This document shows, in pieces, positions 25,901 to 50,325 of a stretch of DNA of 64,000 nucleotides. The stretch is from a virus (lineage: Duplodnaviria; Caudoviricetes): the IMG/VR virus record IMGVR_UViG_3300031993_000019; one strand, 5' to 3'. Position 1 is the stretch's first letter, and every line of letters starts with the position of its first letter. The position numbers and the translations under genes are program-made. The notes under the pieces are model-generated. The model was not told where the DNA came from and did not search any database. It saw only the letters and a list, made by a program, of their open reading frames with translations.

Positions 25901-28900
25901 CGACCGGAGGGCCGTCATAGCCGCTATCCGTTGTGTCTGGATATTCAATATATACATCATGAATGTTTGTACATCCATAAAACGCGTTATAGCCAAACCC
26001 ATTAATATATTGTGGATTTTTAATAATAATGCTAACGGCGCCATTTTTACCCAAATACTTGTTTGACGGAATATATCCGTTTTCATCAACGTCCTCTTCT
26101 CCGTTGATAATAATGCTATCGTTTGACTCGTTCTCATAAACAATAATGTTTTTAATGTTTGAGACCTCCACCCAATCAAACGAAATTTGCGTAGGCATAT
26201 CGGTCCACGAATCGTTCGGTTCAACACTGTTGGATAAAATGTGTATTAAGAACATACGACCCTTTTCGTCCTTCATCAATTTATCATTTCCGGAATATAC
26301 AACATCCTTCCATGCGTTAATCATATTTACGGACTCATTAGAGGACAAACCCCTAAACCCAAGAGTATTTGCGTTTACATACACAGGTTTATAGTTAACA
26401 TTTTTATCCGGATATTGCCAACGAGACAATTCTTCTCTATAACCGCCAACATTATAAACGTCGCCATCGGTATTTCTTGTCCAGTATCCTGGTGCAATCT
26501 CCGTTACATTATCGACCTCCACGATTCTTTCTGGAACATATTGATAATGATCTGCACGATAATTTGCCTGAATAATTTCTCTGCCAAGCAACGCCGAAAC
26601 ACTACCAGACATAAAATTCTTTTCGCCGACACTAATCTTTGGATATCCGCCAAGGGTGTCCTGCTGAGACCTTGAAACGTTTTGTACCTGCGCCCCAGAA
26701 GAAACATTATACTTAAATCTCCAAACGTCCTTCGGAGAGGCTGTATACAAGACGATGCGTCCATTTTCAATCTCTTGCGGATCGTGCAGTTCGATAATCG
26801 ACCATCCCATATAATGAACTTCTATATCAAAATTCTGTGCCCATATCTCCCTAGAAACAAAACGATCCGAATTGTTTACAGGAACCATTGCGTCACGACA
26901 AACAAGATATTCATAATGATGACCACTTGCGACGCAATAATCTTTGTATATAACTTCGGAAAGAGCATTTTCGCTAATCAAACACCACGGGCTACTATCC
27001 CCGGAGAACCTATCTCCGTACGCAGATTTAATCTGATCGTCATAATACCAAACCTCGCGCTTATAAATGCGGATCATACTATTTGTAGCATCTTCTGTGT
27101 TTAATAAAGACTCAGACACATTAATCTCAACACACAAATCGTCGTAATTAAAATCAATTGTAGAATTATCATTTTGTGTTGATTGGTCTGAATATTGTGC
27201 ATATAATATGGTATCCTGGCTAAACTTGCCACCATTATTGGTCATAATGGTAGATCTTAAAATATAATATTTTTTATCCTCAAGACCAAAAAAGACAAAA
27301 CGAAGTTTGCCGTCGTATTTTTCACTGCTGCTTGTCACAAATTCTTTTACAACAAACTTATCGAGCATTCGATTTGCGGTATATAAATCCCACTGACAAC
27401 TCTCCCATAAAATATAATCAGCCTGATTATATTCTATTTCTGCAGAAAACGTACGTGTTTTAATTTCATAAAACAGATCTTGGTGTTCTTCGGAAGAAAT
27501 CTCATTGCCCATAGAATCATATACGCGCACCGTAAGAGTGGGATTTTCGGCAAGAGAAAACTCATTATAATCGCTACCTCTATAATTCGAACAAATCTGA
27601 TACTTTGTGTCTACTTTCTTGGCATTTAAATATGTAGACCAGTCAACTCCATCAAATTTATCCTTCACAATAATAAACCAATATTTCGTATTAACCATAC
27701 TAATAGGGGAAAGCTTAATATCTGTATTTTTATCGTCGTCAAATTTTACAATCATATGTGGTTCAATACCGACAAATGGTTTAATATACACAAGCTCTCC
27801 ACCAGGAACCGGATATGGTGCATCCCCAACATAACCATCATCAGAAATTGACTGGTTATAAAAAATAACCCCTGTATAATCCTGTTCTCTATATTGTTTA
27901 TAAATAATTTCTGCGATAGCCGGCTGATCTCCTGCATTTGACGGAACATAAAAAACATTTTGGGATTTAACAACATAGAACCACGTGTTTGACGGAACTG
28001 TAACGCCATTTATTTTAACAGACAAAACCTCTCCTATGGGCTCTGTTGTTTTAATCAAATACATATTGCTTGTTGTGCCAACACTAGTTGGCACCAAATT
28101 ACTATCCGTCGTATTCGTTTTTACCGTATTAAACAGCCTAATTGGTTTTTCGGAAACAAACATAAAAGGTGTTTGGTTTAAAACTCCAGACGTAGAGCCG
28201 ATAGTAATCTCTGCATTGGCGCCGGGTTGAAGCAAAACATCTCCGTCGACTTCGTCTGGCGGCGTAGTCGACCCATTCTCTACATAAACAACCTTGTTTA
28301 GCAACAGCCCCCACGTATTAGCGTCTGTTGTACGATACCAGTTGATTGTAACGTTCCATTTGTTCTCCCCGTCAACCTTTTCTGCAGACGGATCCGGACT
28401 AAAAATACCGTTATAACACGACCCTAGATATTTCCTGTCGTCGCCAGATCCGGAATATGCGCCTCCGGTATACATATGATTAAATATAATGCGCTCTTTA
28501 CCATAAATAGTAATGCTCGGAGCGCCAGAAGGATATCCCTCAAACGGGCGATAACCATTCTCGGACGGATTTGTTGTTGTAGTATAAATCTGCTTCCAAT
28601 GAGATTGTGAAAGATTAGCCGGGGTATCAATCCACCTCCAACGATTATATTCCTCTACATCTGCAAGATCATCCTGAGAAAGAGAGGCATAATAATATAG
28701 GTGCATCGACCAACCGCCTCCCGCAATTAATTGTTCGTGCGTAAACGGCCCGAGCGCATTATTAAGAGTATTAATATAATCACACTGAACGTATACTTCA
28801 AAATATGTGTTTCCGCCAGATTGATATGTGTTGGTTTGCACGCATCTTGCCGACCTCTGAACCCTATTAGAGCCTGCAAAATAAACCGCCCAAACGTTAT

Positions 28901-29909
28901 TTGTATCAAAAGCGTTTGGCATACGTATGGTAATATATCCATTACAATCAATATTCCTACCCTCAGATGTATTATGATCATAATATCTCAAAACAGAATG
29001 CGCAATTTCCATATCAACCGGATAATTAATAATTTCATAAACCTTATCGGACACACCAAGATTTTCAGGGTCATTACCATTTTTATAAATTCTAAAACCA
29101 TTATTCCCAAAGTCAGGTGTAATTTGGTCTTCTGAAAACGCATTATCGCCGGATTGCGACGGATAAATATGACCGTATATATCGTCATAATTTTCTATCA
29201 ACGACCTTACACCGGAATTGATAATTCCGTTATTACCCAACCCCTGATTCCAGTCTTTAGGAGTTGCCGGATTATATTCAAGCAAATCAATGCTTACAGG
29301 TTGAATATGCTTATCAATTAAAACAAGACCGTTCACAAGATCCTCATCGTCAGAAACCAGCGCGGTCTGAATACGCTGACTTGTAGACCCAATAACCTTA
29401 CCGGTAGACACAATCATATCATAATATATTTGGTCCAATGGATACGAAATTGTAGTGGTGCCATTAACCATTTCTTGATATAAAGTAATTTTCCACCTGT
29501 AGGTTTTTCCGTTGCTCAACACAGACTCTGGAGGAGTGTTGCGCGAAAACGTGCCATAATCGTCAATATCCGACTGTGCATCATATATAATCGGGATCTT
29601 TAAATAGCTCCCGTTAATTCCCGTGTTTAAATTTTGATATCCACGCCCATACTGTGAAAATTTATCATCAAAAAACCTTTTTAAATCAACAACGAGCGTG
29701 ATGTTGTCTGTTTGTTCGACGGAGTGTTCGCCGGTCCCACTGTCAGCAGACCAAAGCTTATTATTGTCTTCGTCAAACAACTCTAACGAATATCCGTTTA
29801 CAATGGCATTATTCGTATCTATTTTACATTCTATAAAAATTGGTCTGTCGTTCAAAGCGTCAAAAGAATCTCCGCTAGGAATGCAGTCTGTTGGTTTATA
29901 AACAGCCAT
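22986..29909 (-). CDS. 2307-aa tail protein: beta-rich (Ig/FN3-like) N-terminal region plus about 1000 aa of BspA-type LRRs
   Basis: Many IGxYAFyxCxxL repeats from about aa 1300 onward; located in the tail module. Confidence 0.8.
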   Translation of the reverse strand: MAVYKPTDCIPSGDSFDALNDRPIFIECKIDTNNAIVNGYSLELFDEDNNKLWSADSGTGEHSVEQTDNITLVVDLKRFFDDKFSQYGRGYQNLNTGINGSYLKIPIIYDAQSDIDDYGTFSRNTPPESVLSNGKTYRWKITLYQEMVNGTTTISYPLDQIYYDMIVSTGKVIGSTSQRIQTALVSDDEDLVNGLVLIDKHIQPVSIDLLEYNPATPKDWNQGLGNNGIINSGVRSLIENYDDIYGHIYPSQSGDNAFSEDQITPDFGNNGFRIYKNGNDPENLGVSDKVYEIINYPVDMEIAHSVLRYYDHNTSEGRNIDCNGYITIRMPNAFDTNNVWAVYFAGSNRVQRSARCVQTNTYQSGGNTYFEVYVQCDYINTLNNALGPFTHEQLIAGGGWSMHLYYYASLSQDDLADVEEYNRWRWIDTPANLSQSHWKQIYTTTTNPSENGYRPFEGYPSGAPSITIYGKERIIFNHMYTGGAYSGSGDDRKYLGSCYNGIFSPDPSAEKVDGENKWNVTINWYRTTDANTWGLLLNKVVYVENGSTTPPDEVDGDVLLQPGANAEITIGSTSGVLNQTPFMFVSEKPIRLFNTVKTNTTDSNLVPTSVGTTSNMYLIKTTEPIGEVLSVKINGVTVPSNTWFYVVKSQNVFYVPSNAGDQPAIAEIIYKQYREQDYTGVIFYNQSISDDGYVGDAPYPVPGGELVYIKPFVGIEPHMIVKFDDDKNTDIKLSPISMVNTKYWFIIVKDKFDGVDWSTYLNAKKVDTKYQICSNYRGSDYNEFSLAENPTLTVRVYDSMGNEISSEEHQDLFYEIKTRTFSAEIEYNQADYILWESCQWDLYTANRMLDKFVVKEFVTSSSEKYDGKLRFVFFGLEDKKYYILRSTIMTNNGGKFSQDTILYAQYSDQSTQNDNSTIDFNYDDLCVEINVSESLLNTEDATNSMIRIYKREVWYYDDQIKSAYGDRFSGDSSPWCLISENALSEVIYKDYCVASGHHYEYLVCRDAMVPVNNSDRFVSREIWAQNFDIEVHYMGWSIIELHDPQEIENGRIVLYTASPKDVWRFKYNVSSGAQVQNVSRSQQDTLGGYPKISVGEKNFMSGSVSALLGREIIQANYRADHYQYVPERIVEVDNVTEIAPGYWTRNTDGDVYNVGGYREELSRWQYPDKNVNYKPVYVNANTLGFRGLSSNESVNMINAWKDVVYSGNDKLMKDEKGRMFLIHILSNSVEPNDSWTDMPTQISFDWVEVSNIKNIIVYENESNDSIIINGEEDVDENGYIPSNKYLGKNGAVSIIIKNPQYINGFGYNAFYGCTNIHDVYIEYPDTTDSGYDGPPVEEDLFDWWCKLDFENEASNPIIASPGENNGGVRIYKQNSDMGEYHLCTELDCGDDPDNIDDRSGYFPSKYALYKYQYLYSVSMLYNAQRVDANQSVLSPQDELFYGCSKLQRVYLKNVDISDGMFAECESLEIVEMDGVSIINANAFKNCSSIEEIIIPNTVISIGYSAFNGCTSISDITIPFVGDGGGVNTHFGYIFGASGYDVQNEYLPEGISVVLGTNNNISDYAFYGCSKLYAIDTEGWIGSSVGAYSFYGCSGLIEFNIPGSVRSIGNYAFSMSGLTSVEIKYYYDDTGLDDLGSHVFENCKKLTSVVLNAGQNTTILEYTFAGCIKLSSVSLNMVYPDRDSWSIGNYAFYDCRSLDSLDTSDVDAIGTSAFEYSGLSSLTISSTTTSIGANAFRGSSVNIVKVAHRSQGLTIGSGAFAKCDALSKVVYLGATVNGDMVSIDGWFGIEFTDGLSNPICTSGRLYYTTSGDNENEVYNLQVPDVSVNNYAFYNCKSLARVTFTPGTLSDNNIIGDYAFFNCSHIESVGNMKSSYITSIGDYAFYNMETYFTDGVESLVLSDRIDHIGQYAFYNLGVRIGVFEGGNKLYIKGHPEIGANAFLGAQISDVYYTDEESGMSGWTYITFNNLYANPLYQCGANLYIFESNSYTKVVDILFDSDVDEIPQYAFAGSTIEEIDFMNASVSVGDYAFYNCSKLHGDDNEDLPLNIYQIGDYAFSGTIVRNVTGSYTSVGVGAFANSFVEFVDLTGFTDSLPEKLFSGCSHLWLLSLSNQTTSMSTDSLYGCIGLTTMYAHVDVINSFEYKMNLQDVRIYLNATSTSSDSVPNGMFENSAALQSVRIAGQDSLSHGHTIGANAFKNCRYLSVLNLANSNAYTIYEGAFEGSAISNVIIPDFVSNIYPHAFHTNIGYSASFPDSTWKLSKDGASDVYITVTNSGSTQTPSKADMAYSLMGIDGATAYTDRMWERIQ

Positions 29910-32099: not shown

Positions 32100-35000
32100 T
32101 TAGTGATTATTTTTTGTCAGAGAAATTTGACTCTTAACGCTGTTCCAGAATGCAGAAGCATCAAAGCCGGAATCTGTATTGAACGTTGCATTAAGCGTTC
32201 CAACGTGCATAGAGTTATCCTCAGACTTCTTTTCGTCTATTCTGTTGAATGATTTTCCGCTTAATTGTGTAATTAAATTAGGAGCAACTTCACCAAGCGA
32301 CCACAAATTCTTTGTAAGATCCGCCGGAAGAATACCAGACTTTGCCGGAAGAGATGTAATGGTGCCTTCTGGAGTAATAATGCCCTCAAGACCGCGTTCG
32401 TTGATAAGGGTGGGACCGCCAGAAAATGAAAGCGCTCCCGAAGCGTTTCTCAACAAACTATAATTAGTCACACCATCTAGTGTTGTCGGGGGAGACAGTT
32501 CCCGGTCTCCATTTTGAAGTCTTATCTCGTGCCATCCGTCTATGCCTTTATAATAACCATATTCGTTGCTTGTGTCTGTATTAACAAAAACATAACCGAC
32601 ATAATTTTCGTTTTCTAAATCATCAAACGTTTCAGCGTGTTGAAACTGATGAACGCCTCCACCTATGTCAACCTTTGATAACAACAACTGATCTGCTTTC
32701 CCTCTTTTTAGGTCAGACGGGACCTGGTCTTGTGAAGATTGAGAATAATACATCATAACGCCGGCGTCTCTTGCGCCCTGCGGATGAGACCACCCCTCAC
32801 CATCTGGTATATAAACCCTAAGCCATCTGTTCTGGTCCTTCAATTCATTAAAATATCTTCTCTTCTCATCATATCCTGAAACATCGTAGTTCTTTCCAAT
32901 TCCCATTTTATTATAATCTGTAAGCTTTGCAGAAGAAGTAGACAATTGGTCTAATTTATCGGAATACATTTGTTTTGCTGTACCATAATAAGGAGACTTG
33001 TTGTTCTGTAAAACACTCGCAACTGAAAGCCCTCCGAGAGCATCTTGGGCTTTATTTATCCAGCTATTTTCATCATCTCTATTAAGGTCTGATAAAATAG
33101 AAGTATAAACTGCCTCCTCGGCATCCGCCTCTTCTTGCGATACGCTTTGCGCATTTTCGCCCAAAGAATTAGTTACGCCTTCCTGGATCTTTTTGGCAAG
33201 CTCTTTCTTATTAAAAGATAAAATGCTTCCAAGTACAGACCCCTCTTTGCCCTCCATGAACTTTTCAATAAGCTTATATATGCTTTCAAGCTGCTCGTTA
33301 TTTTCAATGTTTGCCAAAATGTCTTTTTGCTGATTAAGCATATCAATCTGATATTGAATATCTCGTTGATCTCTCTCTCTTTCAAGCTTTTCAACATTTT
33401 CCTGAGCATCTTTAATAGCCTGCTGGTCAGAAGTATAAACAAAACCAACACCCTCTCTATACACTCTCTTCTTTTCCTTTTGTGCGTTCTCAAGGGCCTG
33501 TTTTGCCTTAATAAGCTCGAGTTCTTTTTCCCTCTGTTTATTAACATCCTCTAAAGACTCTTTTACAGATTCGAGATTGGAAATTTCATTTTGCAGAGCA
33601 TTTTCTTCCGCTTCAACGAGTATTTTTTGAATAACCTCCGCAATCTTAAAATCTCCAGTAAGTTCACCCGCGAGTTTTGCAAATGCGTTGAGCGCGTCCG
33701 TATTATTGAACATAATAGCGGAGGCTCCCAAAAAGTTTGAACTGCCTTGTATGCCGAGCCAGTCTTCTTCGCTTAGACCAAGCGCACCATATTCTTTCGG
33801 ATCTCTGTATTTCTCTATAAACGCTTCCCACGTCTTATCATTAGTCAGTGCCGCCTTAGCAACAAGTCCAATAGCACCCTCTATTGCGTCGCCAGTAAAG
33901 AAATCGATTAAGTTCTTCATGATATTTTCTGTGCCAAAAGAACCATCTTCGCCGTTCAAAAGCCAGCTATAGTTTTCAAGAATGCTATTCATTGTTTTGG
34001 CGCTAATTGTTGAAGAGTGTGAAATCTCGGTTAAAATATCCCCAAGACCACTAAACGACTCCACAAGACCGTCGACCCCGTTGGCAATAGTAGCGTCTGT
34101 TACCCATCCAAGCGACTTTTCCGCTTTTAACGCCTGCTCCGTAGTCATATTCAAGGCGTGCGCAATGCGTTCAATTCCAGCAGCATCAGCCTTATATAAT
34201 AAATCTATACCAGAATCTCCGTATTGTTCGCGCAATTCTGCATATCCACCAGCCTCATCCAACCTACTAATAGCGCCCTGAATACCGCCAGAATATCCGC
34301 CAAATAAACTTTCCGCTCTAGACCTTGCTCTAATTCTGCTCGACAGGGTTTGCGTATTATTTTTAAACAAAGAAGAGTATCTTTCATCGCCACGCAAATA
34401 ATCAATAATATCCTGTCGCGCGGACGCAGTTAATGTACCACCGAGAAAAACATTAGGATTATTCTTAGACCAGTCCTCTGCAACCTGTCTTATAACACGC
34501 TCAAGAGTGGCGTTATTAATCTGTACAGCAGACATTCTAGAAACACCAGATGTAATCGCAGATGCAGCCAAATATGATTTTTGTAACGAATCTTGATACT
34601 TTTCAAGATCAACCTCAATAGACGACAACTTCTGATTAAGCTCATTTAACTTGTCTTCGTCTCTCTCTTTTGCAATTTTAGAAAGTGTTTTTACAAGATC
34701 CTTTTCAAGATTAGAAATCTCAATCCTAGATGCGGCAAACGATTCTTCTGCCTCGCCGACAATCTGTGCCGCGCTCAATCTGGACATTTCTTCTGACGTA
34801 AGAGAAGCCACGTCTCCGGACGGTTTGTTATATTCTTCTCCGAATAATTTCTTATACGAATTTCTTAACGCTGAATTTGACTCAAACGCATTAATAATTG
34901 CCAAATATGCCTCTTGATTTCTTTTCCAGTCAGCAGAAGACCAAGAAGACGATCCAGCATCTACAGAATCCCTCAAGGAAGACACGGACGAAGAAACACC

Positions 35001-38000
35001 TTGTATTGCCTCAAGAGTCTCCTTGTGCTTTGCCACATCCCTAGACATCTCTATTTCGTCCCTGTGTCTTAACCACTTAAATAGTGAAGCGACGGGGTCT
35101 AAAAGAATTGGCCCAAGAGTGGCCCCAAGAGCTGTGCCGATACCGGGGGCTATCATTGTTCCAATTGCAGCGCCTATTCCGGCGCCCGCGGCCCCTGTAG
35201 CTCCGCTTATAACAGAATCTACACCGTTTTCAAATTCAGACGTACCAACAACTTCATCAATCTTATTTCCTATAATTCCACCACCAGCGGCCCCATAAGA
35301 CAGACCGCTCGAAACCATAGACCCAACGGTTATACCGGCTATCTGGCCTCTTGTATACGCAGTATCTTCTCCCTTGTGCTTACCATGAGCATATTTTACT
35401 TTTGTACCCCAGTAACCAGGGACGCTTTCAGAAGAAGACTCTCCGCGAAGTGCGGCTGTATTTCTATTTTCCGCGTTTGTATTATCAATAATGGCCTGTT
35501 TATGTGACGTCAAACGATTATTAATCAAAGTTCTTAAAAGAGGAATGGCAGAAATCAAAGCTGGCACCCATTTATCTGCGAGTTCAACGGTTGATGTCAA
35601 AGCCCAAAGCACACCCTTAATAACAGGACTTTGATCTATCTTTAACACAAGGCCCTCCCAAGCAGCTTGAAGTTCTTGTTTTTGGAACTCAATACTGTCT
35701 TTATATGCCTCATATTTTCTATTCGCCCTACCGGCAGAAGTCTCTTCGTCTTCCAGTGCTTTCTTATAGGTTTGATAAGAGTTAAGCAACGCAACAGTAG
35801 TATTACGTTGTCTCACGCCGCCAAGAGCGACTGCAATTGCATTCTGCTCTACCGTAGTGAGAGTTGTCCATTTTTCTGCAATATCATCAAGCACATCTGC
35901 AAAATCGCGCATCTCCATCTTTGACGTTCTGATCTGAATGCCGAGGGCACCTAAAACGCGTTCAACATCATTGATGTTTTCCGCATCCCCCTCTTCGGCT
36001 CCCTCAAGAACTGCAAAGGAACCAGCTTTAACATTACCATAACGAGAAAGCATTGTCTTTAATGCATTACCAACAGTACCGGCGTCTTGCTGGGTGGTGT
36101 CGATAATAGCCGTAATGGCAGCAGCCGTCTCGTCAAGGCTCATACCGGCGTTGTTCGCAACAGATGCAACACGAGTCAGGGCCGTTGCAATATCTCCGGC
36201 CGTTGTCGCGTATTTTGCATCAAGCGTTGTCAGCTTATCAACGATAGACATTGATTCAGTGGCAGAAAGATTAAAGCCTTTCATTGCCGCGGTCAACGAT
36301 TTAACAGCCGCGCCCTGATCCATAAAACCAAGCTTCGCAAGTTTAGTGCTTGCTTCTATAAGATTTTCAGTTTCTTGGATGTTGTATCCTTGACGCAGCC
36401 ATTCTGCCCCAACCTGTGAAATAGCGGCAGTCGTGACACCAAGCTCTTTTGCCAAGCCGTTATAAGCCTTCATCATGGAATTCGCTTCCTCTGCGTTTTT
36501 ACCAGTGATAATACGAAGATTCGTCATAGAAGCGTTAAGCTGTTCTGTAATTTGAACAACCTTTTTCATATCGCCAAAAAATTTAAGAATGAGCTTCGTT
36601 GTTACACCACCACGGAAAAGCATATTAAATGCAGTAGCCGGACCAGACGAAAGATCTTTTAACCACCACGCCCCAGAAAACATCTTGTTATCCTTTTGCT
36701 TTTCCTGTGCATCCCTTAAAATTTGTTCCTGAATACGCTTATCTCTATCTTCGCTATTTTGCGCCATTTTCTTTGCCATTTCTTGCGAAACGCCCTGGTC
36801 TACTTTTGTATAAGACCCATCTTGCATATAAAGAGCTCCGCCTTCTCCCTCGAGTTTTTCAAGCTCTTCTTCTGCTTTAAGATAAGCGTAAGAATCCTGT
36901 TCCCCGCGCATTGCAAGCCTTCCAAGAGTAGACTTTAACCGACTTCTCTTGTCTAACGCTTTCGCAAACGCAGAAAGCTGAGACCCTCCTTTTGTGCTAA
37001 AAATATCTATCGCTCTGCCGAGATCGGTACCAGGAGCAATAGACGCCCCCATAATTTCGCTTATGTCTGCAGAAGATATAAGAGACTGCCGTTGATCTTG
37101 TGAATACACAACTCCGGCAGCGGCGTCTGCGAGCGCACGTTCCACATTTTCATTAGAAAGAAGTCTAAACCGATACGCAGAAACCTTATCATTTGTCGGA
37201 TTGAATCTTGTAATTGTTCCGTTTTCAGAAATCTCTGCCGTCTTTAATATATTTGCAAAGTCTGTCGGCTTACCATTTTCATCGACAAGACCATATTTTT
37301 GTGCCGCGCCTAAGAAGTTTTCTCCCTGCAACTCTTTTTGAATTTGAGAAAGAGCGTATTTTCCGTAAGAAAGCTGCATTAATTGAGAAAAATCATCTCT
37401 TCCGGATTTATTTTTAGAGTCTCCGACGATCATTTGATTGGTTTTAGGATCGTAATAAACCTGATCTATAGTTCCCGCAAAATATCTATCAGCCAAAGCG
37501 GTTTTACCAAGTTGACCAACAGAGAATTCACGTGCAGCAACCTGATATCCAAGACTCTTACTTATTGCAGATTGAGCCAGCGTAGAATAAATTGACGCCT
37601 CACCAAAAGACCCGATATTCTCTGGACTATATCCAAACTTTTTAAGCCTATCTTCTGTTTGAGCCCATATCTTCTTGCCCTCTTCTGTATTTTGAAATCT
37701 TAAAAGATATTTCGACAAAACGTCTTTATTCAAAACATTATTACCGTTATTATCTTTTACAAACAAATCGTCCATGGAGACATCAAGCGCTTCTCCAAGA
37801 ATCTCCATTTCTTTATGTTGTAATGTCCCAAAAATAGAAGAAAGTGCGCTACTTCTTGCTCTTTCAAAATTATTAATATCGGATACAGTATAACCATGTT
37901 TGGCTATGTCTTCAACGGAAAACTTATCCCCGCTATACGCATCCAATAACTCCAAAAACTCGGAGCCTCCGCTGTGATAAGAAGAACCTGATAATATACT

Positions 38001-41000
38001 TCCAAGTTTAGAAGCGGTAATCGCATCTGGAAGAGCGATTCCATTTTCGTCAACATAATAATGTCCAGGATTTTCTCTCAGATCAGTAAATATAGGAGAA
38101 AAACCAGAAACAAATCTACCACCCTGATTGCCAGCCGCAGCCAAAACGGCAGACGCATAACTGTCTGGATTTCTCATTAATATTTCCCAATCTCTATCTG
38201 AAAAATTCCCTCCCTGTGTTGCTGCAATTTGTTCTGCCGCACTAACACCATACCTCTTGCCGTCTACCGTATACTCTGCCTCTCCATTCGCGATAGCTTT
38301 TTTCATCGCCTCAATGCGCTTTTGTATTGGTGTAGGAGCTGTTTGTTTTGTAGCACCATGTTCTCTTAACCATCTACCAATAGAATAATCGCTTGTAGAC
38401 ATGTCTCCTTCAAGCCTATTCGAAGAGACCAGGGCTTGGTGTAAAAATGTTCCCCTATTGCCTTTAGAAACACTCTTATCAATATAATCAGCAGCATACA
38501 TCAGCATTTCAAAAGGTATAGTGCCAATCGTATTTCTTGCACTTTGGCTCGCTTCGTCTGTGACCAGAAAATCATTCACGATCTGTTGTGCGGTCCTTGT
38601 ATCGTTTGCGCCAAATTCAGAAGATTTATACCGATCCGCATAACGCATGAGTTCTCTCTTAAAATCATTTCCTCCAGCCGCGCTCGCCTGCTGAGCCATT
38701 TGAATCAAAGCTTTATTCCCAACCGTATCTTTAAAAACCCCGATGTTTTTAAGTTCGCCAAAGTATTCACGAAGAGACATAGGATTGTTTTTATCCCACG
38801 CCTTTGCGGTAATATTTCGCAATTGAGAAATGGCTTCGGTTTGTTTTTGTGCGAATTCTTCCGGAGACAATTGACCATTTTCCTTATTAAGCTTGTTTAT
38901 GATATGCTTATATGAAATGGCGTCTTGCTCTACTGACTCAAACAGATATCTAACCATCTGTCCGATCGCAGAACTAGCGCCAACTCCTGTCATTTCAGAC
39001 ATAGACTTAGAATCTAAAAATCTTCTCGCCTCAGTAGCCTGAGAAGAAATAAGACCGATCTCTCCGCGGTTTGCTGCGCCAGCAAAAGACGCAGTTTCTA
39101 CGGTGGCGTGCGTAGGAAGCACGAGGTCTTCTCGCCAAATCTCCGCATCTTCTCCGCGAATTTCACGTACTCTTGCTATTGCCTCTGAAACCCTCTTGTG
39201 ATTTTCTTGTATCTTTCTAGCCGTTTTAATAAACGAACCAACACTCTTATCGTCCATTCCATTCATTCCAAGAAACGCAGAGACAAGAGCAAAGTGGTCT
39301 CGGTCGTAGTCCGTTCTATTGGAATCCGCAGCACCATATCCAATCTTCGCAGCCTCAGATCCGGTCATTGTGCTATCGACAAAAGCTCTTAAAAATCTAA
39401 CGTCCTGCCCTTGAATCGAAGGAAATCTTACGTCTTGAAGAAGAACGCCTTTTTCATTCACGCCGGAACCAAGAGTGACCGCCTTTAAAATGTCTTCTTT
39501 TATTTTTTTATTTGTCAGTCGTTTAGCTGGGCCCTTTCCAAAAACATCCCTATAAACAGCAGACAAATTAGCCCTGTCGTTACCTATAAGATCGCCCATC
39601 GCCTCTGGACTTAAAAACACAGCATCTTTAGCCCCAACAACATCTTGCCCCATTGCAATAGCAGTTGCTTCAAAAAATTTACCGCCGGGCATACGGGTGT
39701 GATAAGCCTGATCTATAATAGAAGAATCTTTATCGAAGGCATATCTTCTATATTCGGACATAAATCTGTTTACAGAATCTTGCGTTTTATTAAATTGTCT
39801 TTGGATCGCCTCTTGGTCATCCTTGGACTCTTCGACAACGCGATTATAGTCCGCCAAAGATCTTATAACAGAGTTCAAAGATTCATCAAAAGAAGAAAGC
39901 ATATATCCCAAAGAACCGCCTGCTTCTCCGCCAAGCCTATCAAATAGCTCCATTGCTTCTGTTTCTGGAGAAATATTAGGTACAATAATTTTTGAAGAAG
40001 AAAACTTGTTTCCGTACGAATCGTCGAACGAATATCCAAACGGGCCAAGATCCAAAAGTCCATAAGACGAACCACCCATAGAATCATAAAACTTTTTTAA
40101 ATTGCTTTCGTTATAAGATTCTTCTGTAACATATGGCCCGCGATAATCGAATCTGGAATCTCCGACTACACCAAAAACATCAAACGCTGGGACGCCTTTG
40201 TCGCCACCAGAAAAAGAAAGACCAAACGCGTTCTGATACGCATTTACCTTTTTCATAACAGCATCACGACGACCTGTATTGTAAATGTTTTCATAGTGTT
40301 GGACAAAATCTTCCGCATCCGGACCAGCCGCTCTCTTAATGGCCTCTATTTCTCTACGCCCATATTTAACACCGTTCAACCAACGATAATCATATGCCGC
40401 ATTAAGCCCTTCTTGAATCGTAAAGTTTTCACTAGGAAAATATTGCCTAATATTACCGAGGATCTTCTTCTGATCTTCCTTGTCAAGATCGATATTTTGC
40501 CCCAAAAACCTTGCAACAATCTCATTGTCTTTAATATCAAACATGTCTGCATATTTTGTTCCGGCAAAAATTTGACCTATTTGACGCTTTACGTCTTCCT
40601 TGTCTGACTTTGGATCTAAATATATATCTGTTAATCTACTAATTAAAAGACCGCCAAGATCGTTTGCGCTCATTTGTTCAATTCCGCGAAGAACGTCAAC
40701 ACCGCTGAACATATCGTTAAAAAATTTTTCTGGTAAATAAGAAGATTCGCTTCGATAGCCAGTATATCTACCAAGCGTTTTAGGGTTTGACCATCTGACT
40801 CTTTCGGAGAAATTTGCCTCAAAACCAGATTCTGTTTTAAAAACATTTGGAGAAAGAATATCCCAGGGTTCTATACCCATCAAATACCCTATAACAGCTT
40901 TATGTTTCTCCTCGTCAGTAGAATTTGCTTTAATTTTTCCAGAAGAAACGAGTTTTCTTTGTGCTCTATTATACTCTTCAAAGCCAAATGCCTTATGCCT

Positions 41001-43037
41001 CTGACGAGAAATATCAAACTCTCCCGATATTCCTTGTCTCATAATAGACGCGTTGTCGTGTAATCCGGGAACAACACCAACGGCAGCCGCAAGCTCCGGG
41101 TTTTTACTGGCCCACTCATTCCACTTATCCAAAAACTGTTTTTCGGTGATATATTGTATCCTATACAGCCGTTCTGTGGCATCGTCATAATCGTATTTGT
41201 TAGCCTTCCCATACTGCGTCTTAAAGATAGGAGCGTTTCTGTTTTTTCTTGCAAGCACGGCAGCGTTTGTAAGATCTCCAAAGTTTGTCCCCTGAGAAAC
41301 ATGTCGCGATGCATCCCATCCAATAGCAGCAACAGCATTTTCAAGATTCGCTGCAAGCTGAATAAATCCACCAGCTCTCGCAGCATTCGAGCCATATTGT
41401 GGTGACAAAGGAAGCGAGGACAAATCTTTCAACATCTTTTTCGCAGTCATGGAAGAAAGAATTTGGCTATAAAGATCGTTTCCCTTACTTAAATTAGCGA
41501 TCGCCTTAGCCTCATCATTGGTTCCTCGCATCTGCGCCCTGTACGCACCAATAAGATCATAAACACCTTTTACAACATCAGATTCCTGACGCGCATTAGA
41601 CCCTCCGATTTCCCTCATAATGGCGTCGATCATAGGCCTAATAACCATACGATTAGAAGAGTTTTCTCTTGATGCTCTTCTCGACATACTTTCATTAGAC
41701 GGCTCGTCGTATTTATATGCGCCTGCATAATCATACGGCATACCCCTCAAAGAATTCTTCTCTGCCATAGAAAGCGCAGATTTCAACCTTCTTTCATAAG
41801 CAGAACTGCTTTCTCCGCTTTTCTGTCTAACCTGAAGCAAGACACGACCGACTTCTTCGAGCATATATTCTGCAGTTGTAGAATAACGCGGAGCCCGAAC
41901 CTCGAATCCGCCAGATCTATTACTTGTTTCATTTGGCAAAACTATGATATTATTTGCCCCTCTTCCACCATTTCTTCTCATAGAAAGGCCGTTTACATCG
42001 TCAAGAGAACCATATCTAAACTTAGGGACCTTCGACCAATCAATCTTGTTAGACTTGACGTTCTTTTCTGGAAACGCCAAAATGTATTCGTCTCTTGAAT
42101 CACGTCCCAATACGAGCTTTCTTCCGGCTCTTCTCGCTTCGTTGCTAATATCCTCTAAATAATTTTGAGTGAAAGAAGAAGCATTTTCTTTTTTTACGCC
42201 ACCAGAATAAACCCTATTTATAACAGAGTTCGCAGAGTATTTAGAAAAATTTCTTTGAAATTTATCAAAGCTATTTTTATTTAAAACCCGTATTCCTTTA
42301 TTTTCAACCCCAGAAACGCCGGTTTCAAACGCCTTACGAACCGACATAACTCTCTGCTTCAACTTCTTGTTATCAAGCTCATATTTCTTACTAATTTTAT
42401 CAAGCTCTTCCCTAACTTTTAAATGATTTTGCAATGCATCATATGCCAGATCTTGATTTTGTTCGATATTTTTGATAAAACTATCTATTGCGCTTACCGG
42501 TTGATTAGAAAGCGTTCTTGCTATTTTAGAAATAGACACACTCTCTTTCAAGAGCGCTCTCTTTTTCCCTTCAAGAATCTTTCTGCCAAACGTGGAACCG
42601 GCAGACAAACGTTCGATCCTTTCGTTTGTTAAATCTGAAAGATCCTTGACTGTTTCTTCAATATAATTTCTATAGAGATCATTAACCGTTCTCTGTAATG
42701 CACCCTGAATTTTTGATATTTCATTATAATAATTTTTATCTTCATTCTTAGACCACTGAGATTTTTTATAATTGACATCAGCCTTTGCTTGTCTCACTAA
42801 ATTTGCGACCCTATCATCTATGTTCTGGATCGCCCCATTGGTAATAATATGAATAATCTGTCCTATATTTTTCTTGATATTTTCAGGGCTTTGCTTCTTT
42901 CTTTCTCCCTTTGGTGCATTAGGATTCGAATAATATAATTTAGAAATTAAATCATTAATTTGATTAAAAGATCCAAAAACATTTTCTCCATAATTATCAA
43001 TATTACCAAAATTTTGAGTTAAAAAATTATTGTCCAT
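32100..43037 (-). CDS. Tape measure protein (TP901-type core) with N-terminal RNA-polymerase-like and PD-(D/E)xK nuclease domains
   Basis: TMP core LNASMTNLRIITG...EWLRQG...AGTVGNALKTMLSR at about 35650-36560, Gly-rich hydrophobic segment, C-terminal coiled coil and ASG...INERGLEGI; enzyme motifs detailed in findings. Confidence 0.9.
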   Translation of the reverse strand: MDNNFLTQNFGNIDNYGENVFGSFNQINDLISKLYYSNPNAPKGERKKQSPENIKKNIGQIIHIITNGAIQNIDDRVANLVRQAKADVNYKKSQWSKNEDKNYYNEISKIQGALQRTVNDLYRNYIEETVKDLSDLTNERIERLSAGSTFGRKILEGKKRALLKESVSISKIARTLSNQPVSAIDSFIKNIEQNQDLAYDALQNHLKVREELDKISKKYELDNKKLKQRVMSVRKAFETGVSGVENKGIRVLNKNSFDKFQRNFSKYSANSVINRVYSGGVKKENASSFTQNYLEDISNEARRAGRKLVLGRDSRDEYILAFPEKNVKSNKIDWSKVPKFRYGSLDDVNGLSMRRNGGRGANNIIVLPNETSNRSGGFEVRAPRYSTTAEYMLEEVGRVLLQVRQKSGESSSAYERRLKSALSMAEKNSLRGMPYDYAGAYKYDEPSNESMSRRASRENSSNRMVIRPMIDAIMREIGGSNARQESDVVKGVYDLIGAYRAQMRGTNDEAKAIANLSKGNDLYSQILSSMTAKKMLKDLSSLPLSPQYGSNAARAGGFIQLAANLENAVAAIGWDASRHVSQGTNFGDLTNAAVLARKNRNAPIFKTQYGKANKYDYDDATERLYRIQYITEKQFLDKWNEWASKNPELAAAVGVVPGLHDNASIMRQGISGEFDISRQRHKAFGFEEYNRAQRKLVSSGKIKANSTDEEKHKAVIGYLMGIEPWDILSPNVFKTESGFEANFSERVRWSNPKTLGRYTGYRSESSYLPEKFFNDMFSGVDVLRGIEQMSANDLGGLLISRLTDIYLDPKSDKEDVKRQIGQIFAGTKYADMFDIKDNEIVARFLGQNIDLDKEDQKKILGNIRQYFPSENFTIQEGLNAAYDYRWLNGVKYGRREIEAIKRAAGPDAEDFVQHYENIYNTGRRDAVMKKVNAYQNAFGLSFSGGDKGVPAFDVFGVVGDSRFDYRGPYVTEESYNESNLKKFYDSMGGSSYGLLDLGPFGYSFDDSYGNKFSSSKIIVPNISPETEAMELFDRLGGEAGGSLGYMLSSFDESLNSVIRSLADYNRVVEESKDDQEAIQRQFNKTQDSVNRFMSEYRRYAFDKDSSIIDQAYHTRMPGGKFFEATAIAMGQDVVGAKDAVFLSPEAMGDLIGNDRANLSAVYRDVFGKGPAKRLTNKKIKEDILKAVTLGSGVNEKGVLLQDVRFPSIQGQDVRFLRAFVDSTMTGSEAAKIGYGAADSNRTDYDRDHFALVSAFLGMNGMDDKSVGSFIKTARKIQENHKRVSEAIARVREIRGEDAEIWREDLVLPTHATVETASFAGAANRGEIGLISSQATEARRFLDSKSMSEMTGVGASSAIGQMVRYLFESVEQDAISYKHIINKLNKENGQLSPEEFAQKQTEAISQLRNITAKAWDKNNPMSLREYFGELKNIGVFKDTVGNKALIQMAQQASAAGGNDFKRELMRYADRYKSSEFGANDTRTAQQIVNDFLVTDEASQSARNTIGTIPFEMLMYAADYIDKSVSKGNRGTFLHQALVSSNRLEGDMSTSDYSIGRWLREHGATKQTAPTPIQKRIEAMKKAIANGEAEYTVDGKRYGVSAAEQIAATQGGNFSDRDWEILMRNPDSYASAVLAAAGNQGGRFVSGFSPIFTDLRENPGHYYVDENGIALPDAITASKLGSILSGSSYHSGGSEFLELLDAYSGDKFSVEDIAKHGYTVSDINNFERARSSALSSIFGTLQHKEMEILGEALDVSMDDLFVKDNNGNNVLNKDVLSKYLLRFQNTEEGKKIWAQTEDRLKKFGYSPENIGSFGEASIYSTLAQSAISKSLGYQVAAREFSVGQLGKTALADRYFAGTIDQVYYDPKTNQMIVGDSKNKSGRDDFSQLMQLSYGKYALSQIQKELQGENFLGAAQKYGLVDENGKPTDFANILKTAEISENGTITRFNPTNDKVSAYRFRLLSNENVERALADAAAGVVYSQDQRQSLISSADISEIMGASIAPGTDLGRAIDIFSTKGGSQLSAFAKALDKRSRLKSTLGRLAMRGEQDSYAYLKAEEELEKLEGEGGALYMQDGSYTKVDQGVSQEMAKKMAQNSEDRDKRIQEQILRDAQEKQKDNKMFSGAWWLKDLSSGPATAFNMLFRGGVTTKLILKFFGDMKKVVQITEQLNASMTNLRIITGKNAEEANSMMKAYNGLAKELGVTTAAISQVGAEWLRQGYNIQETENLIEASTKLAKLGFMDQGAAVKSLTAAMKGFNLSATESMSIVDKLTTLDAKYATTAGDIATALTRVASVANNAGMSLDETAAAITAIIDTTQQDAGTVGNALKTMLSRYGNVKAGSFAVLEGAEEGDAENINDVERVLGALGIQIRTSKMEMRDFADVLDDIAEKWTTLTTVEQNAIAVALGGVRQRNTTVALLNSYQTYKKALEDEETSAGRANRKYEAYKDSIEFQKQELQAAWEGLVLKIDQSPVIKGVLWALTSTVELADKWVPALISAIPLLRTLINNRLTSHKQAIIDNTNAENRNTAALRGESSSESVPGYWGTKVKYAHGKHKGEDTAYTRGQIAGITVGSMVSSGLSYGAAGGGIIGNKIDEVVGTSEFENGVDSVISGATGAAGAGIGAAIGTMIAPGIGTALGATLGPILLDPVASLFKWLRHRDEIEMSRDVAKHKETLEAIQGVSSSVSSLRDSVDAGSSSWSSADWKRNQEAYLAIINAFESNSALRNSYKKLFGEEYNKPSGDVASLTSEEMSRLSAAQIVGEAEESFAASRIEISNLEKDLVKTLSKIAKERDEDKLNELNQKLSSIEVDLEKYQDSLQKSYLAASAITSGVSRMSAVQINNATLERVIRQVAEDWSKNNPNVFLGGTLTASARQDIIDYLRGDERYSSLFKNNTQTLSSRIRARSRAESLFGGYSGGIQGAISRLDEAGGYAELREQYGDSGIDLLYKADAAGIERIAHALNMTTEQALKAEKSLGWVTDATIANGVDGLVESFSGLGDILTEISHSSTISAKTMNSILENYSWLLNGEDGSFGTENIMKNLIDFFTGDAIEGAIGLVAKAALTNDKTWEAFIEKYRDPKEYGALGLSEEDWLGIQGSSNFLGASAIMFNNTDALNAFAKLAGELTGDFKIAEVIQKILVEAEENALQNEISNLESVKESLEDVNKQREKELELIKAKQALENAQKEKKRVYREGVGFVYTSDQQAIKDAQENVEKLERERDQRDIQYQIDMLNQQKDILANIENNEQLESIYKLIEKFMEGKEGSVLGSILSFNKKELAKKIQEGVTNSLGENAQSVSQEEADAEEAVYTSILSDLNRDDENSWINKAQDALGGLSVASVLQNNKSPYYGTAKQMYSDKLDQLSTSSAKLTDYNKMGIGKNYDVSGYDEKRRYFNELKDQNRWLRVYIPDGEGWSHPQGARDAGVMMYYSQSSQDQVPSDLKRGKADQLLLSKVDIGGGVHQFQHAETFDDLENENYVGYVFVNTDTSNEYGYYKGIDGWHEIRLQNGDRELSPPTTLDGVTNYSLLRNASGALSFSGGPTLINERGLEGIITPEGTITSLPAKSGILPADLTKNLWSLGEVAPNLITQLSGKSFNRIDEKKSEDNSMHVGTLNATFNTDSGFDASAFWNSVKSQISLTKNNH
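37200..38030 (-). other. PD-(D/E)xK nuclease domain within the tape measure protein (limits approximate)
   Basis: FGTLQHKEME, AREF, FAGTID (D1858), IVGDSK (D1873/K1875), QLMQLSYG. Confidence 0.75.
38400..41300 (-). other. Two-barrel RNA polymerase-like domain within the tape measure protein (limits approximate)
   Basis: LHDNASIM (D661), KTLGRYTGYR (K753), VRFPSI (R1204), DYDRD (D1243-D1247; nt 39297-39311), EIGLISS (about aa 1327), EQDAISYKH. Confidence 0.7.
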
Positions 43038-43057
43038 AATTAACCCTCCTATTTTTT

Positions 43058-43100
43058 ATAATAAAAGGGGAACGACGCACGAAACGGCATGCGTCGTTTC
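43058..43100 (-). promoter_or_regulatory. Terminator-like hairpin abutting a TTTTATTAT candidate late-promoter element
   Basis: GAAACGACGCA/TGCGTCGTTCC stem, then TTTTATTAT just upstream of the tape measure RBS. Confidence 0.5.
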
Positions 43101-45048: not shown

Positions 45049-48000
45049 TTAGGACGAAATTGCCTGAATATACTCTGCATAGTCAGACCACCCGGATGCG
45101 GATTTGTACGTGTCAACACTAGCCGCCGGAACACTGATCATACATGGCGGCATTTTTTTGCCATATGTACTATGATAACCAAAGATCCCATGTACATCCA
45201 TGGCGGGCGGTTCAATCGCCAAAAGCACCATGGAGGTCAAGCCCAAGCAATCATCAAACACCCATCCCCCAATACTCTCGAGGCTATCCGAGATTACAAC
45301 CGAGGTCAGCCCGGTACAGCCGGAGAACGCATAGTTTCCGATGCTCGTGACGCCGTTGCCAATGGTGACCGAGGTCAGCCCGGTACAGCCGGAGAACGCA
45401 TCGCTTCCGATGCTCGTGACGCCGTTCCCGATGGTGACCGAGGTCAGTCCGGTGCAACCGGAGAACGCAGAGTTTCCGATGCTCGTGACGCCGTCCGGGA
45501 TGGTGATGAAGGTCAGCCCGGTGCAACCGCGGAACGCAAAGTTTCCGATGCTCGTCACGCCATTCCCAATCGTGACCGAGGTCAGTCCGGTGCAACCGTA
45601 GAACGCAGAGCCACCGATGCTCGTGACGCCGTCCGGAATCACCAGATCAATCACGAATTCGTCATTGATATAGAGATTGTGCGCGTAATAGAGCGGATTA
45701 GCGTTAACTGATCCAAACTCGATCCCGCACCATCCTGCAACGTCTCCGGTATAGTAGACCGAGGTCAGTCCGGTGCAACCGGAGAACGCAGAGCTTCCGA
45801 TGCTCGTGACGCAGTCCGGGATGGTGATCGAGGTCAGCCCGGAGCAACTGTAGAACGCAAACGACGGGATGTTCTCGACGTTGTCTCCAAACGTTACGGT
45901 CGTCAGATTGGAGCAACCGTAGAAGATTGGACGAGAGCTTGATCCCGCCGACGTGCAGTTAGTGGCGTTCCATACGACCGAGGTCAGTTCGGTGCAATTG
46001 CGGAATGCATAGTTCCCGATACTTGCGACGTTTTCCGGAATGGTGACCGAGGTCAGCCCGGTGCAACCGAGGAACGCATATCCTCCGATGCTCATGACGC
46101 CGTTGCCGATGGTAACCGAGGTCAGCCCGGTACAGTTCTCGAACGCGCCGAAGAGAATGTTCCCGCCCGTGACCGTGACCGACCGAAGAGAGGCGGGAAT
46201 GTAGTAAGTGGTTGTGGTCGTAGAGCTCGTACTGCTACCATAATAAGTTTGTTGGGTTGCCACCCCTCCAGTATAACTATCCTCCCCGAAGATGTAGCCG
46301 AACGGATACTGGTAGGTATCGTTTTCGGTCTTTCCGGCTTCCCCACCAACAAACGGAATTGTAATTTCTTCAAGAGAAGAGCAACCAGAAAACACGCCCT
46401 CTGCAATTCCTTCAACGCCACTGCCGACAACAACCCTTTTTAAACTAGAACAATTAGAAAATGCACCGGCATAAATATCTGTAACGCTATCTGGAATAAC
46501 AATAGAAGCAAGTTCTGTGCACCCACTAAACAAGTTTCCGTTAATAGCGGACAGTTCTCCTCCGTTTGGAAGAGAAGCCATTTTTAAATTTGTACAACCA
46601 GAAAACGCTCCGGACCCAATAAACGTAACGTTATTTGGAATGTCCATAGACGTAATCCCTGTGCATCCAGCAAACGAACCAGAGCCAATAGAAAAGTTAG
46701 GAGACGCTGGAAAAACAACGGTTGTTAACTGAACTTGATTTTCAAATGCGTTATCTCCAACACCTTCAACTATATCTCCGCTAGGAGAAGATTCAGGAAT
46801 AACAAGATATGTGTCCGCGCAAACACCAATGCCAACAACGTTACAGGTGCCGTCGCCATTACTAACATATTCAAGTCCAACAGACGGTTCCGCTGTTGTA
46901 CAAACCACGCTATCAGACCCAATAATTCCATAATTTCCAACAATAGGAGCCTCTTCAAGATTAGTTTGAATCGCATCGTACTCTTCGTCTGTCACAATAT
47001 ATGGAAACACCGCAACATACCAGTTACCAGCGGAGGCCCACTTTCCATTCGAAGAAAGACCAACCTGAACGTAGTCATCCACGCCCTGCTTAATAAATCC
47101 ATTAACCATCTTTCCTTCTGGATTGCTAATACTCTTAATAAGTTGATGAGTAATGCTTAAATTATCAAGAACCCTATGCGACCCGTCTTTATATATTCCA
47201 TACACAATAGGCGAACGCGCCATATTAGCAGAAGTCTGATCGATCGCAACACCAATTAAATCAGTTCGGAAATCTGGATTATGGTTTGTTTCAAGAATTT
47301 CTGCATAATACTCCTTCCCAGTAACCGGATCCACAGAGGCCAACGCGCTTCCGTTTAATGCAATAGTGGCGGCGGAACTCATATTTAATCCAATATCAAA
47401 TTGGCCGTCAAGTTGCAAGCGTGGAATTTTAACAATCAACTGACCAACAGGCTCTCCGGTAGTAACATTTGCCGTATCTCCGGCGTATTCGTTTGCAGTC
47501 ATAATAGCAACGACCTCTCCAGGGAGGAATGTAGCCGAAACATCATAAAGAATAGCCGTTGGGTCGTTTTTAAAATATGAAATCGTAATGACATCATTAA
47601 CAACAAACTTACCGGAAAGCTGAGATGCAGAAATTGTTCTCATTTGCTCACCGGAAACTTGAAGCGGAACCTCAGAACTCGTTCCAGACTTGCAACTAAC
47701 CTTTCGGCCCCAACAAAGAACACCATTTAGCCCACAAAGATGCCCAACAGAAACAGCCGAATTATCAAGTATAATATCTCCACCGTCCCAAACTTTTTGT
47801 TCAGTCGCAAGAATACTCGCAATAAGGCTCGAGCTTTGTTTTGCGCCAAGATTTAGACGAAGGTAGTTAATATCAAACATTGCATCTGTAAGTTGGAGGG
47901 TCATTCCGGTTGTATGACCAAATCGTCCAAACAACTTCGCACCCTGTCCGCCGCGAACGTCTTCCATTGATATCTGAAACCCAATAGAAGAATCTGTTAA

Positions 48001-50324: not shown

Positions 50325-50325
50325 A

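Follow-up and report, generated by a model that had tools for sequence, protein, structure and literature searches.

A giant tape measure protein of an SPbeta-like siphophage with a probable two-barrel RNA polymerase and a probable nuclease ahead of its tape core

Organisation of the tape measure gene

The DNA analysed here, referred to as the window, is a stretch of 64,000 nucleotides from the IMG/VR record IMGVR_UViG_3300031993_000019, a virus of the Caudoviricetes. It contains a tape measure gene at positions 32100-43037 of the minus strand, the strand on which all gene-like open reading frames (ORFs) of at least 150 amino acids (aa) in the window and all features of this gene are located. 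The gene is a single uninterrupted ORF of 3645 aa without any cysteine. A preliminary description of the sequence had proposed that the product carries a two-barrel RNA polymerase (RNAP)-like module and a nuclease, in this order, ahead of a tape core that starts unusually late. Structure prediction, two independent fold searches and residue conservation all bear out this arrangement.

The protein begins with a region showing no recognisable family (aa 1-539; 41421-43037). An ESM Atlas feature search with aa 1-545 gave a top score of 0.84, which is below the meaningful level. About 330 or more residues precede the polymerase module in all homologues. The module itself is composed of a beta/Rpb2-like half (aa 576-884; 40386-41312), which contains the second barrel with D661 and K753...R762, and a beta'/Rpb1-like half with the catalytic barrel (aa 939-1284; 39186-40223), both assigned by fold matches of a model. 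Long helices (aa 1310-1380; 38898-39110) follow, and then a RecB-family PD-(D/E)xK nuclease domain assigned by model fold and motifs (aa 1640-2010; 37008-38120), the TP901-type tape measure core (aa 2155-2491; 35565-36575) and a Gly/Ala-rich segment, hydrophobic according to its hydropathy profile (aa about 2560-2650; 35088-35360), which is a candidate for a membrane-inserting part. The remainder (aa 2651-3645; 32100-35087) is a coiled and conserved tail-tip end, the C-terminal block of which is kept in 12 of 12 homologues.

Only the tape core is recognised by the domain libraries. TIGR01760 places it at aa 2155-2491 (E 2e-36, 125.6 bits, cutoff 28.8), which agrees with the late start proposed earlier, and PF10145 at aa 2193-2407 (E 5e-31, 108.5 bits, cutoff 33.2), so that both TP901-type matches lie above the curated cutoffs. 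Fourteen PHROG tape measure families also match, with starts at about aa 2000-2170, and the core can be aligned with aa 349-721 of YomI from the Bacillus phage SPbeta. No match to Pfam, NCBIfam or PHROGs was obtained for aa 1-2150; thus the approximately 2150 residues ahead of the core are not explained by any library. A cell-wall hydrolase domain was not detected in the protein by the Pfam and NCBIfam scan.

The polymerase module

An AlphaFold2 model of aa 540-1560 was calculated from an alignment of 20 rows (mean predicted local distance difference test score (pLDDT) 69.5, predicted template modelling score (pTM) 0.56). When this model was compared with the PDB by Foldseek, all 50 listed matches were beta- or beta'-type RNAP subunits of bacteria, archaea, Pol I/II/III/V, plastids, poxvirus and the phages phiKZ and AR9 (E about 1e-3 to 1e-2, probability mostly 0.9-1.0). 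VIA, a fold search independent of Foldseek that covered 48,161 chains, returned exclusively two-barrel polymerases or domains thereof at ranks 1 to 22. The best match was QDE-1 (7y7p; Z 10.8, root-mean-square deviation 4.0 over 232 residues, model residues 38-744), which extended over both barrels. It was followed by the non-virion RNAP (nvRNAP) of phiKZ (Z 10.4), A135 of Pol I (Z 10.2), bacterial beta (Z 10.0) and the Pol IV, plastid, AR9 and vaccinia enzymes (Z 9.7), and then by gp96 of the Thermus phage P23-45 (Z 8.0, entry 8h2n, and 7.5), gp62 of P74-26 (Z 7.9), RDR2 (Z 7.8) and chains of the beta'/Rpb1 type (Z 7.3-7.8, model residues 400-745). Below the polymerases there were unrelated helical matches at Z 6-7. 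A PolD-like DNA polymerase was rejected, PolD reaching Z 5.8 compared with about 10 for RNAPs. The modelling and Foldseek comparison of this region had been suggested in the preliminary description, and two-barrel RNAPs headed both fold searches.

The two halves of the model resemble different subunits. Model residues 37-345 (aa 576-884) correspond to the second-largest subunits of phiKZ nvRNAP, A135, beta, AR9 and vaccinia (Z 9.2-10.4), and model residues 400-745 (aa 939-1284, including RxP and DxDxD) to the largest subunits, while the alignments with QDE-1 and gp96 span both. A beta-like barrel followed by a beta'-like barrel, the order found in single-chain two-barrel RNAPs, is therefore seen in this moderate-confidence model.

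The RxP of the catalytic barrel, R1204-F-P1206 (39420-39428), aligns with NRAP of beta', the reference residues being R446/P448 of Rpb1. The predicted metal-binding DxDxD loop, D1243-Y-D-R-D1247 (39297-39311), aligns with DFDGD of beta' and gp96. RxP and DxDxD are separated by 37 residues, the range in the superfamily being 20-100. In the beta-like barrel K753-T-L-G-R-Y-T-G-Y-R762 (40752-40781) contains, judged by conservation, the candidate basic pair for nucleoside triphosphate binding, the reference residues being K979 and K987 of Rpb2 and R738 and K743 of QDE-1; the reference acidic residue of the second barrel is D837 in Rpb2 and D709 in QDE-1. The predicted secondary structure consists of the strand VLLQDVR, the loop FPSIQGQD, the strands VRFLRAFV and AKIG, a helix, the loop TDYDRD and the strand HFAL. 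This strand and helix pattern around DYDRD parallels that of residues 419-468 of Escherichia coli beta', where the loop is likewise placed between helix and strand. The long helices of aa 1310-1380, defined by predicted secondary structure, contain NRGxIGxxSxxxTxxR and EQDAISYKH, where conservation across the wide family is strongest, and some of the structural alignments with beta' and gp96 run on through them. Judged from the model, they are candidates for the bridge helix and trigger-loop region.

Profile alignments of the family by hhalign pointed to the same stretch. The best segment against whole E. coli beta' was RxP...DxDxD, in register and with a non-significant E of 0.07, and that against aa 1-1250 of gp96 was the catalytic-loop stretch, in register over 53 columns with a non-significant E of 0.048. 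The comparison with YonO gave E 0.16 and 0.37 for non-catalytic segments, and that with beta was also non-significant. Neither phmmer with the protein nor hmmsearch with the family alignment (A2) detected any sequence of the PDB, including 8H2M/8H2N, at E up to 10. Membership of the YonO family and of the gp96 family was rejected in the absence of sequence homology. Taken on model and sequence evidence, aa about 540-1500 very probably represent a highly diverged single-chain two-barrel RNA polymerase, the fold assignment from the model being well supported.

Homologues and conservation

A word-indexed search yielded 11 homologues of 2760-4286 aa, and a profile search run exhaustively over 1.84 billion representatives yielded 26 proteins, the short matches being fragments. 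The latter search revealed no stand-alone polymerase module and no split form, and of the eight distant homologues of full length (2235-4502 aa) seven contain PF10145.

All motifs quoted in the preliminary description were found in the translation, at the residues given there: LHDNASIM at aa 659-666, KTLGRYTGYR at 753-762, HTRMPGGKFF at 1113-1122, AVFLSPEAM at 1139-1147, VLLQDVRFPSI at 1198-1208, DYDRD at 1243-1247, EIGLISSQAT at 1326-1335 and EQDAISYKH at 1370-1378. They are not chance resemblances, because the key residues are invariant in the 12 closer homologues (32-96% identity). This applies to R1204, P1206, S-I-Q-G-Q-D1212, R1241, D1243, D1245, R1246, D1247 and H1248 as well as to K753, G756, R762 and the blocks NRGxIGLxSSQAT and EQDAISYKH. 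The alignment of RxP and DxDxD had been recommended as a check; among the distant homologues (17-26% identity), RxP and the three Asp are fixed in all aligned sequences covering them. In these proteins R, E, S, K, Q or G occupies the fourth loop position, and several of them read NADYDGD, NADFDGD or GDFDGD, the sequence that is canonical for largest RNAP subunits. One of these homologues (P0020) matched the catalytic part of the profile RNA_pol_Rpb1_2 (PF00623) with E 2.2e-4 and 22.0 bits, just under the cutoff of 25.3.

When the polymerase model was used as a query against BFVD, a "Minor tail protein [Siphoviridae sp. ctnpt50]" was found with 29% identity and E 3.5e-43, viral RNAP subunits coming next; members of the family are therefore already in UniProt without a polymerase annotation. 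A tblastn search with aa 540-1560 against 50,697 GenBank phages gave zero matches. Scans for the motif pattern found nothing in IMG/VR with a pattern from the single sequence and nothing in species genomes, and a pattern based on the alignment found one locus in IMG/VR (L007).

The nuclease domain

The model of aa 1640-2010 (pLDDT 77.1, pTM 0.78) gave a VIA list in which nearly all of the top 24 entries were RecB-family nucleases (Z 10.7-5.4): AddB (Z 10.7), AdnAB (10.1), Dna2 (9.9), MGME1 (9.5), members of the Cas4 family (8.6-7.4), Exo5 (7.7), RecE (7.1) and lambda Exo (6.2). Foldseek returned Cas4 SSO0001, AdnAB and AddB. The four motifs of the RecB-family PD-(D/E)xK nucleases (H/E, D, D/ExK and QxxxY) are represented by H1741/E1745, D1858, D1873-S-K1875 and Q1888, which are invariant, and Y1891, which is nearly so. 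They are in register with those of a stand-alone PF12705 nuclease encoded in the replication module of the window (8902-9894, minus strand; E 4e-23, 8 cysteines). PF12705 itself scored above its cutoff at the matching position in two homologues (P0019 and P0020) and was below Pfam detection in the protein studied here. Fold and motifs together indicate that aa about 1640-2010 are very probably a RecB-family PD-(D/E)xK nuclease. AddB, Cas4, Dna2 and Exo5, with which the domain shares the fold (Z 10.7-7.4 among RecB-family nucleases) and the four motifs, possess iron-sulfur cysteines, whereas the tape-embedded domain lacks them and is part of a virion protein. A Cas4/AddB-type iron-sulfur nuclease was rejected, since a four-cysteine cluster is impossible in a protein without cysteine. 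In the literature searched, no description of a nuclease fused to a tape-measure RNAP was found, in agreement with what had been supposed.

Exonucleases of a different type occur in two homologues. In P0016 an RNase_T-type DEDD 3'-5' exonuclease (aa 1548-1717) interrupts the polymerase, separating its catalytic barrel from the bridge-helix-like block, and in P0031 an RNase_T-type DEDD exonuclease (aa 224-312) is found upstream of the polymerase.

Avoidance of cysteine

The tape measure protein contains 0 cysteines in 3645 aa, compared with 285 in 15,862 aa (1.8%) for the other 38 ORFs of the window; at the rate of its neighbours about 65 would be expected. The homologues of the family (P0002-P0031) have 0-2 cysteines, gp96 has 0 in 5002 aa and YomI 0 in 2285 aa. 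For comparison, there are 14 in the 839 aa of YonO, a cytoplasmic enzyme, and 8 in the 330 aa of the phage's stand-alone nuclease. As the enzyme domains are free of cysteine, they share the compositional constraint of tape measure proteins, and neither iron-sulfur nor zinc-cysteine sites can be present. This composition fits a polypeptide that is stored in extended form in the tail and passes outside the cytoplasm, and it speaks against an ordinary cytoplasmic enzyme as the N-terminal part. Tape measure proteins that are ejected may in general be marked by the absence of cysteine.

Genomic context

The left half of the window is a replication module encoding a Pol III alpha-like polymerase, a DnaB-like helicase, a RecD2-like helicase, a beta-CASP nuclease and the stand-alone nuclease mentioned above. 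The right half contains tail and head genes and a LicD gene. BspA-type leucine-rich repeats (PF13306, E 1e-29 to 1e-109) were found in four genes of the virion module on the minus strand (22986-29909, 45049-48090, 48150-49043 and 49059-50342); one of these repeat proteins, of 2307 aa, is encoded downstream of the tape measure gene. A structural-module protein of 786 aa (53910-56270, minus strand) showed a weak match to the Hint module (PF01079, E 7.8e-4, aa 459-499).

A gene resembling those of tyrosine recombinases is located two genes upstream of the tape measure gene. The region directly before the latter (43045-43098) comprises the terminator hairpin of the preceding gene (43098-43071), the element TTTTATTAT (43066-43058) and GGAGG (43049-43045), a Shine-Dalgarno sequence eight bases 5' of the ATG. 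TTTTATTAT follows directly on the terminator, 9 nt ahead of the ribosome-binding site, and is a candidate for a phage-specific, perhaps YonO-type, late promoter element.

The closer homologues of the giant protein reside on contigs of 130-155 kb; that of P0002, which is 96% identical, measures 143 kb. Their neighbourhoods contain the Pfam families YomU_Tube, YomW, YomX_C and XepA as well as the same recombinase-like gene, and match the gene order yomX...yomU...yomM...yomI of SPbeta. Because of this shared gene order the element is regarded as an SPbeta-like large siphophage (about 130-155 kb), its host most likely being among the Bacillota.

A complete relative of 134 kb with direct terminal repeats in IMG/VR encodes a homologue of the tape measure protein and, in a separate gene, one of YonO (E 3e-32), which makes a pair of virion and non-virion polymerases plausible in this lineage. 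In a related complete phage (IMGVR_UViG_3300045988_165036; L008:1263-1509, minus strand) the YonO-type RNAP gene is interrupted within the codons of the catalytic loop (...HSDSD / about 250 nt / GDLVMSS...). The Rfam model of group I introns (RF00028) is matched by this insert over the full length of the model, with 21.3 bits and E 0.0043, below the gathering score.

Comparison with known systems

The closest architectural counterpart is gp96 of P23-45 (also P74-26, G20c and TSP4; PDB 8H2M/8H2N). Roughly 1050-1200 N-terminal residues of gp96 form an active virion-borne two-barrel RNAP, which transcribes pre-early genes including that of a second, non-virion RNAP and which an antibody revealed in virions (Chaban et al. 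2024, PMC10770324). This precedent and that of phi14:2 described below had been invoked in the preliminary description, and both were verified in the papers. Both gp96 and the present protein have a single-chain two-barrel polymerase at the N-terminus of a giant tape measure protein from a long-tailed siphophage, with some 330 or more residues ahead of the catalytic core and a hydrophobic segment downstream, and both lack cysteine. The lineages are also alike in having a separate non-virion single-chain RNAP, gp64 in one case and the YonO homologue of the relative in the other. However, the catalytic loop is DFDGD in gp96 and DYDRD here, and significant sequence similarity is lacking. Moreover, a PD-(D/E)xK nuclease is placed between polymerase and tape core in the present protein, which has no metallopeptidase domain, and its TP901/SPbeta-type core and SPbeta-like genome of the Bacillota differ from the Oshimavirus background of gp96. 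The protein was not filed in the gp96 family because there is no sequence relationship and the structural match is weaker than that to QDE-1 and the beta-type subunits.

With QDE-1 of Neurospora, YonO and gp66 of phi14:2, a crAss-like phage, the module shares the location of both barrels on one chain, the beta-like barrel being first and the beta'-like barrel second, and QDE-1 is the best structural match over both. The virion-delivered gp66 is active with the variant DFDID, which like DYDRD has a residue other than Gly at the fourth position of the loop, and it prefers single-stranded templates. These enzymes are found outside tape measure proteins and without a nuclease, and gp66 comes from a podovirus-like crAss virion. 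The earlier statement that DYDRD lacked any described case was wrong, as this loop is listed for the phiKZ-type nvRNAPs of Klebsiella phage FBKp24 and Serratia phage Haymo (Supplementary Data 4, PMC10770324).

YomI of SPbeta (2285 aa) occupies the same genomic slot, with tyrosine-recombinase-like and small genes upstream and YomU/YomW/YomX-type tail genes nearby in the loci of the relatives. It has a homologous tape core (24% identity, E 2e-30) and no cysteine. The difference lies in the cargo. In YomI the core begins at aa 349 and a transglycosylase and an M23 peptidase are found behind it, whereas here it begins at aa 2153 and the polymerase and nuclease are found ahead of it.

Possible function in infection

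We consider it probable, largely by analogy, that this is the tape measure protein of an SPbeta-like siphophage whose N-terminal polymerase and nuclease are injected for transcription of the genes that enter the cell first. Given the N-terminal polymerase, the phage would be likely to inject its own transcription enzyme together with its DNA. The observations behind this reading are the fold, the conservation of catalytic residues, the constancy of the fusion and the avoidance of cysteine. The protein, with about 2150 residues added ahead of its length-measuring core, would be built into the tail tube in extended form, free of cysteine and metal clusters. At infection it would be expelled with the C-terminus (the tip end) leading, the hydrophobic segment helping to form a channel, and the polymerase and nuclease would exit last, adjoining the leading end of the phage DNA. 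After refolding, the polymerase might transcribe the genes that enter first (the pre-early genes) without recourse to the host enzyme, and the nuclease might work on a DNA end, either in preparation of the template or in an attack on host nucleic acid. A separate YonO-type polymerase, as in the complete relative, would take over the later genes.

Several points weigh against this reading. There is no significant sequence match to any solved RNAP, the model is of moderate confidence and the individual Foldseek E-values are marginal. Among the beta-like residues singled out in the preliminary description, K753 is conserved together with R762 within the beta-like half and replaced by R in one homologue. 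D661 is not invariant: position 661 or 662 is D or E in most homologues, and one subgroup (P0010/P0011/P0013/P0014, LHGSASIF) has Gly in place of D661. There is no room in a tail tube for a folded polymerase of about 1000 aa, so that unfolding and refolding have to be assumed. In the 64-kb window a tblastn search with YonO detected no second polymerase, and the end of the genome is not within the window either. Finally, packaging, presence in the virion, ejection, catalytic activity, template and targets are all matters that we infer.

It might be thought that the enzyme is indeed an injected two-barrel polymerase but serves another purpose than early transcription, acting with the nuclease on the entering DNA end. 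Synthesis of primers or short RNAs, copying of single-stranded DNA or RNA in the manner of QDE-1, and protection or repair of the end are possible tasks. The top structural match, QDE-1, has RNA- and DNA-templated activity, the nuclease resembles AddB, AdnAB, Dna2, MGME1 and Cas4, which are enzymes of DNA ends, DEDD exonucleases occur inside the polymerase of P0016 and upstream of that of P0031, and gp66 favours single-stranded templates. Yet DNA-dependent beta-type subunits lie within 1 Z of QDE-1 and are thus tied with it, PolD is far lower, and gp96, the sole tested precedent of this architecture, is a promoter-dependent pre-early transcriptase. We regard such a role as unlikely. A related and distinctly unlikely, more speculative version would make the polymerase and nuclease a single injected machine, in which the nuclease produces a single-stranded template by resecting the leading DNA end, or by nicking and opening it, and the polymerase copies this template during entry. 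Such a polymerase would be poor in promoter and clamp functions, its transcription might be coupled to genome entry and help to drive it without a host factor, and the RNase_T insertions of some homologues would be variants of the same end-processing theme.

That the module is a dead relic serving as bulk, as a plug or as an element of assembly or ejection appears improbable. Its extreme divergence, the change of the canonical DxDGD Gly to Arg and the loss of D661 in one subgroup would be compatible with decay, and the active-site loop of gp66 was crystallised in a non-catalytic conformation. On the other hand, the Asp triad, RxP, the basic pair and the bridge/trigger-like motifs are fixed at 17-25% identity, which would be unexpected without catalytic constraint. 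The fourth loop position varies freely, with Gly among its residues, and DFDID and DYDRD are found in working or essential phage RNAPs. It is quite improbable that the N-terminal 2100 residues are removed by cleavage in the producing cell and work there late in infection, only the C-terminal tape part entering the tail. The gene does form part of the late structural module, processing occurs in some tape measure proteins, and a tail sized by just about 1500 residues would have an ordinary length. However, cysteine is avoided as strictly in the enzyme domains as in the tape part, unlike in YonO and the stand-alone nuclease, the fusion is retained in all full-length homologues with no split form, and the RNAP part of P23-45 was found in virions by antibody. 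The term polyprotein used in the preliminary description, with its implication of cleavage, is unsupported.

Tape-measure-fused virion RNAPs have been demonstrated experimentally only in P23-45 and its close relatives. The same architecture is encountered here in a family unrelated in sequence, which belongs to Bacillota phages of the SPbeta-like kind; this lineage has a model relative that is genetically tractable. If the polymerase is active, a first round of transcription independent of the host would be a solution that recurs among long-tailed phages, and the nuclease would provide a handle on the fate of the first DNA end to enter the cell. An active module would also be a very small, cysteine-free and refoldable two-barrel polymerase for studies of the minimal RNAP core. 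Annotations such as "minor tail protein" or "tape measure" can conceal the early transcription apparatus of a phage.

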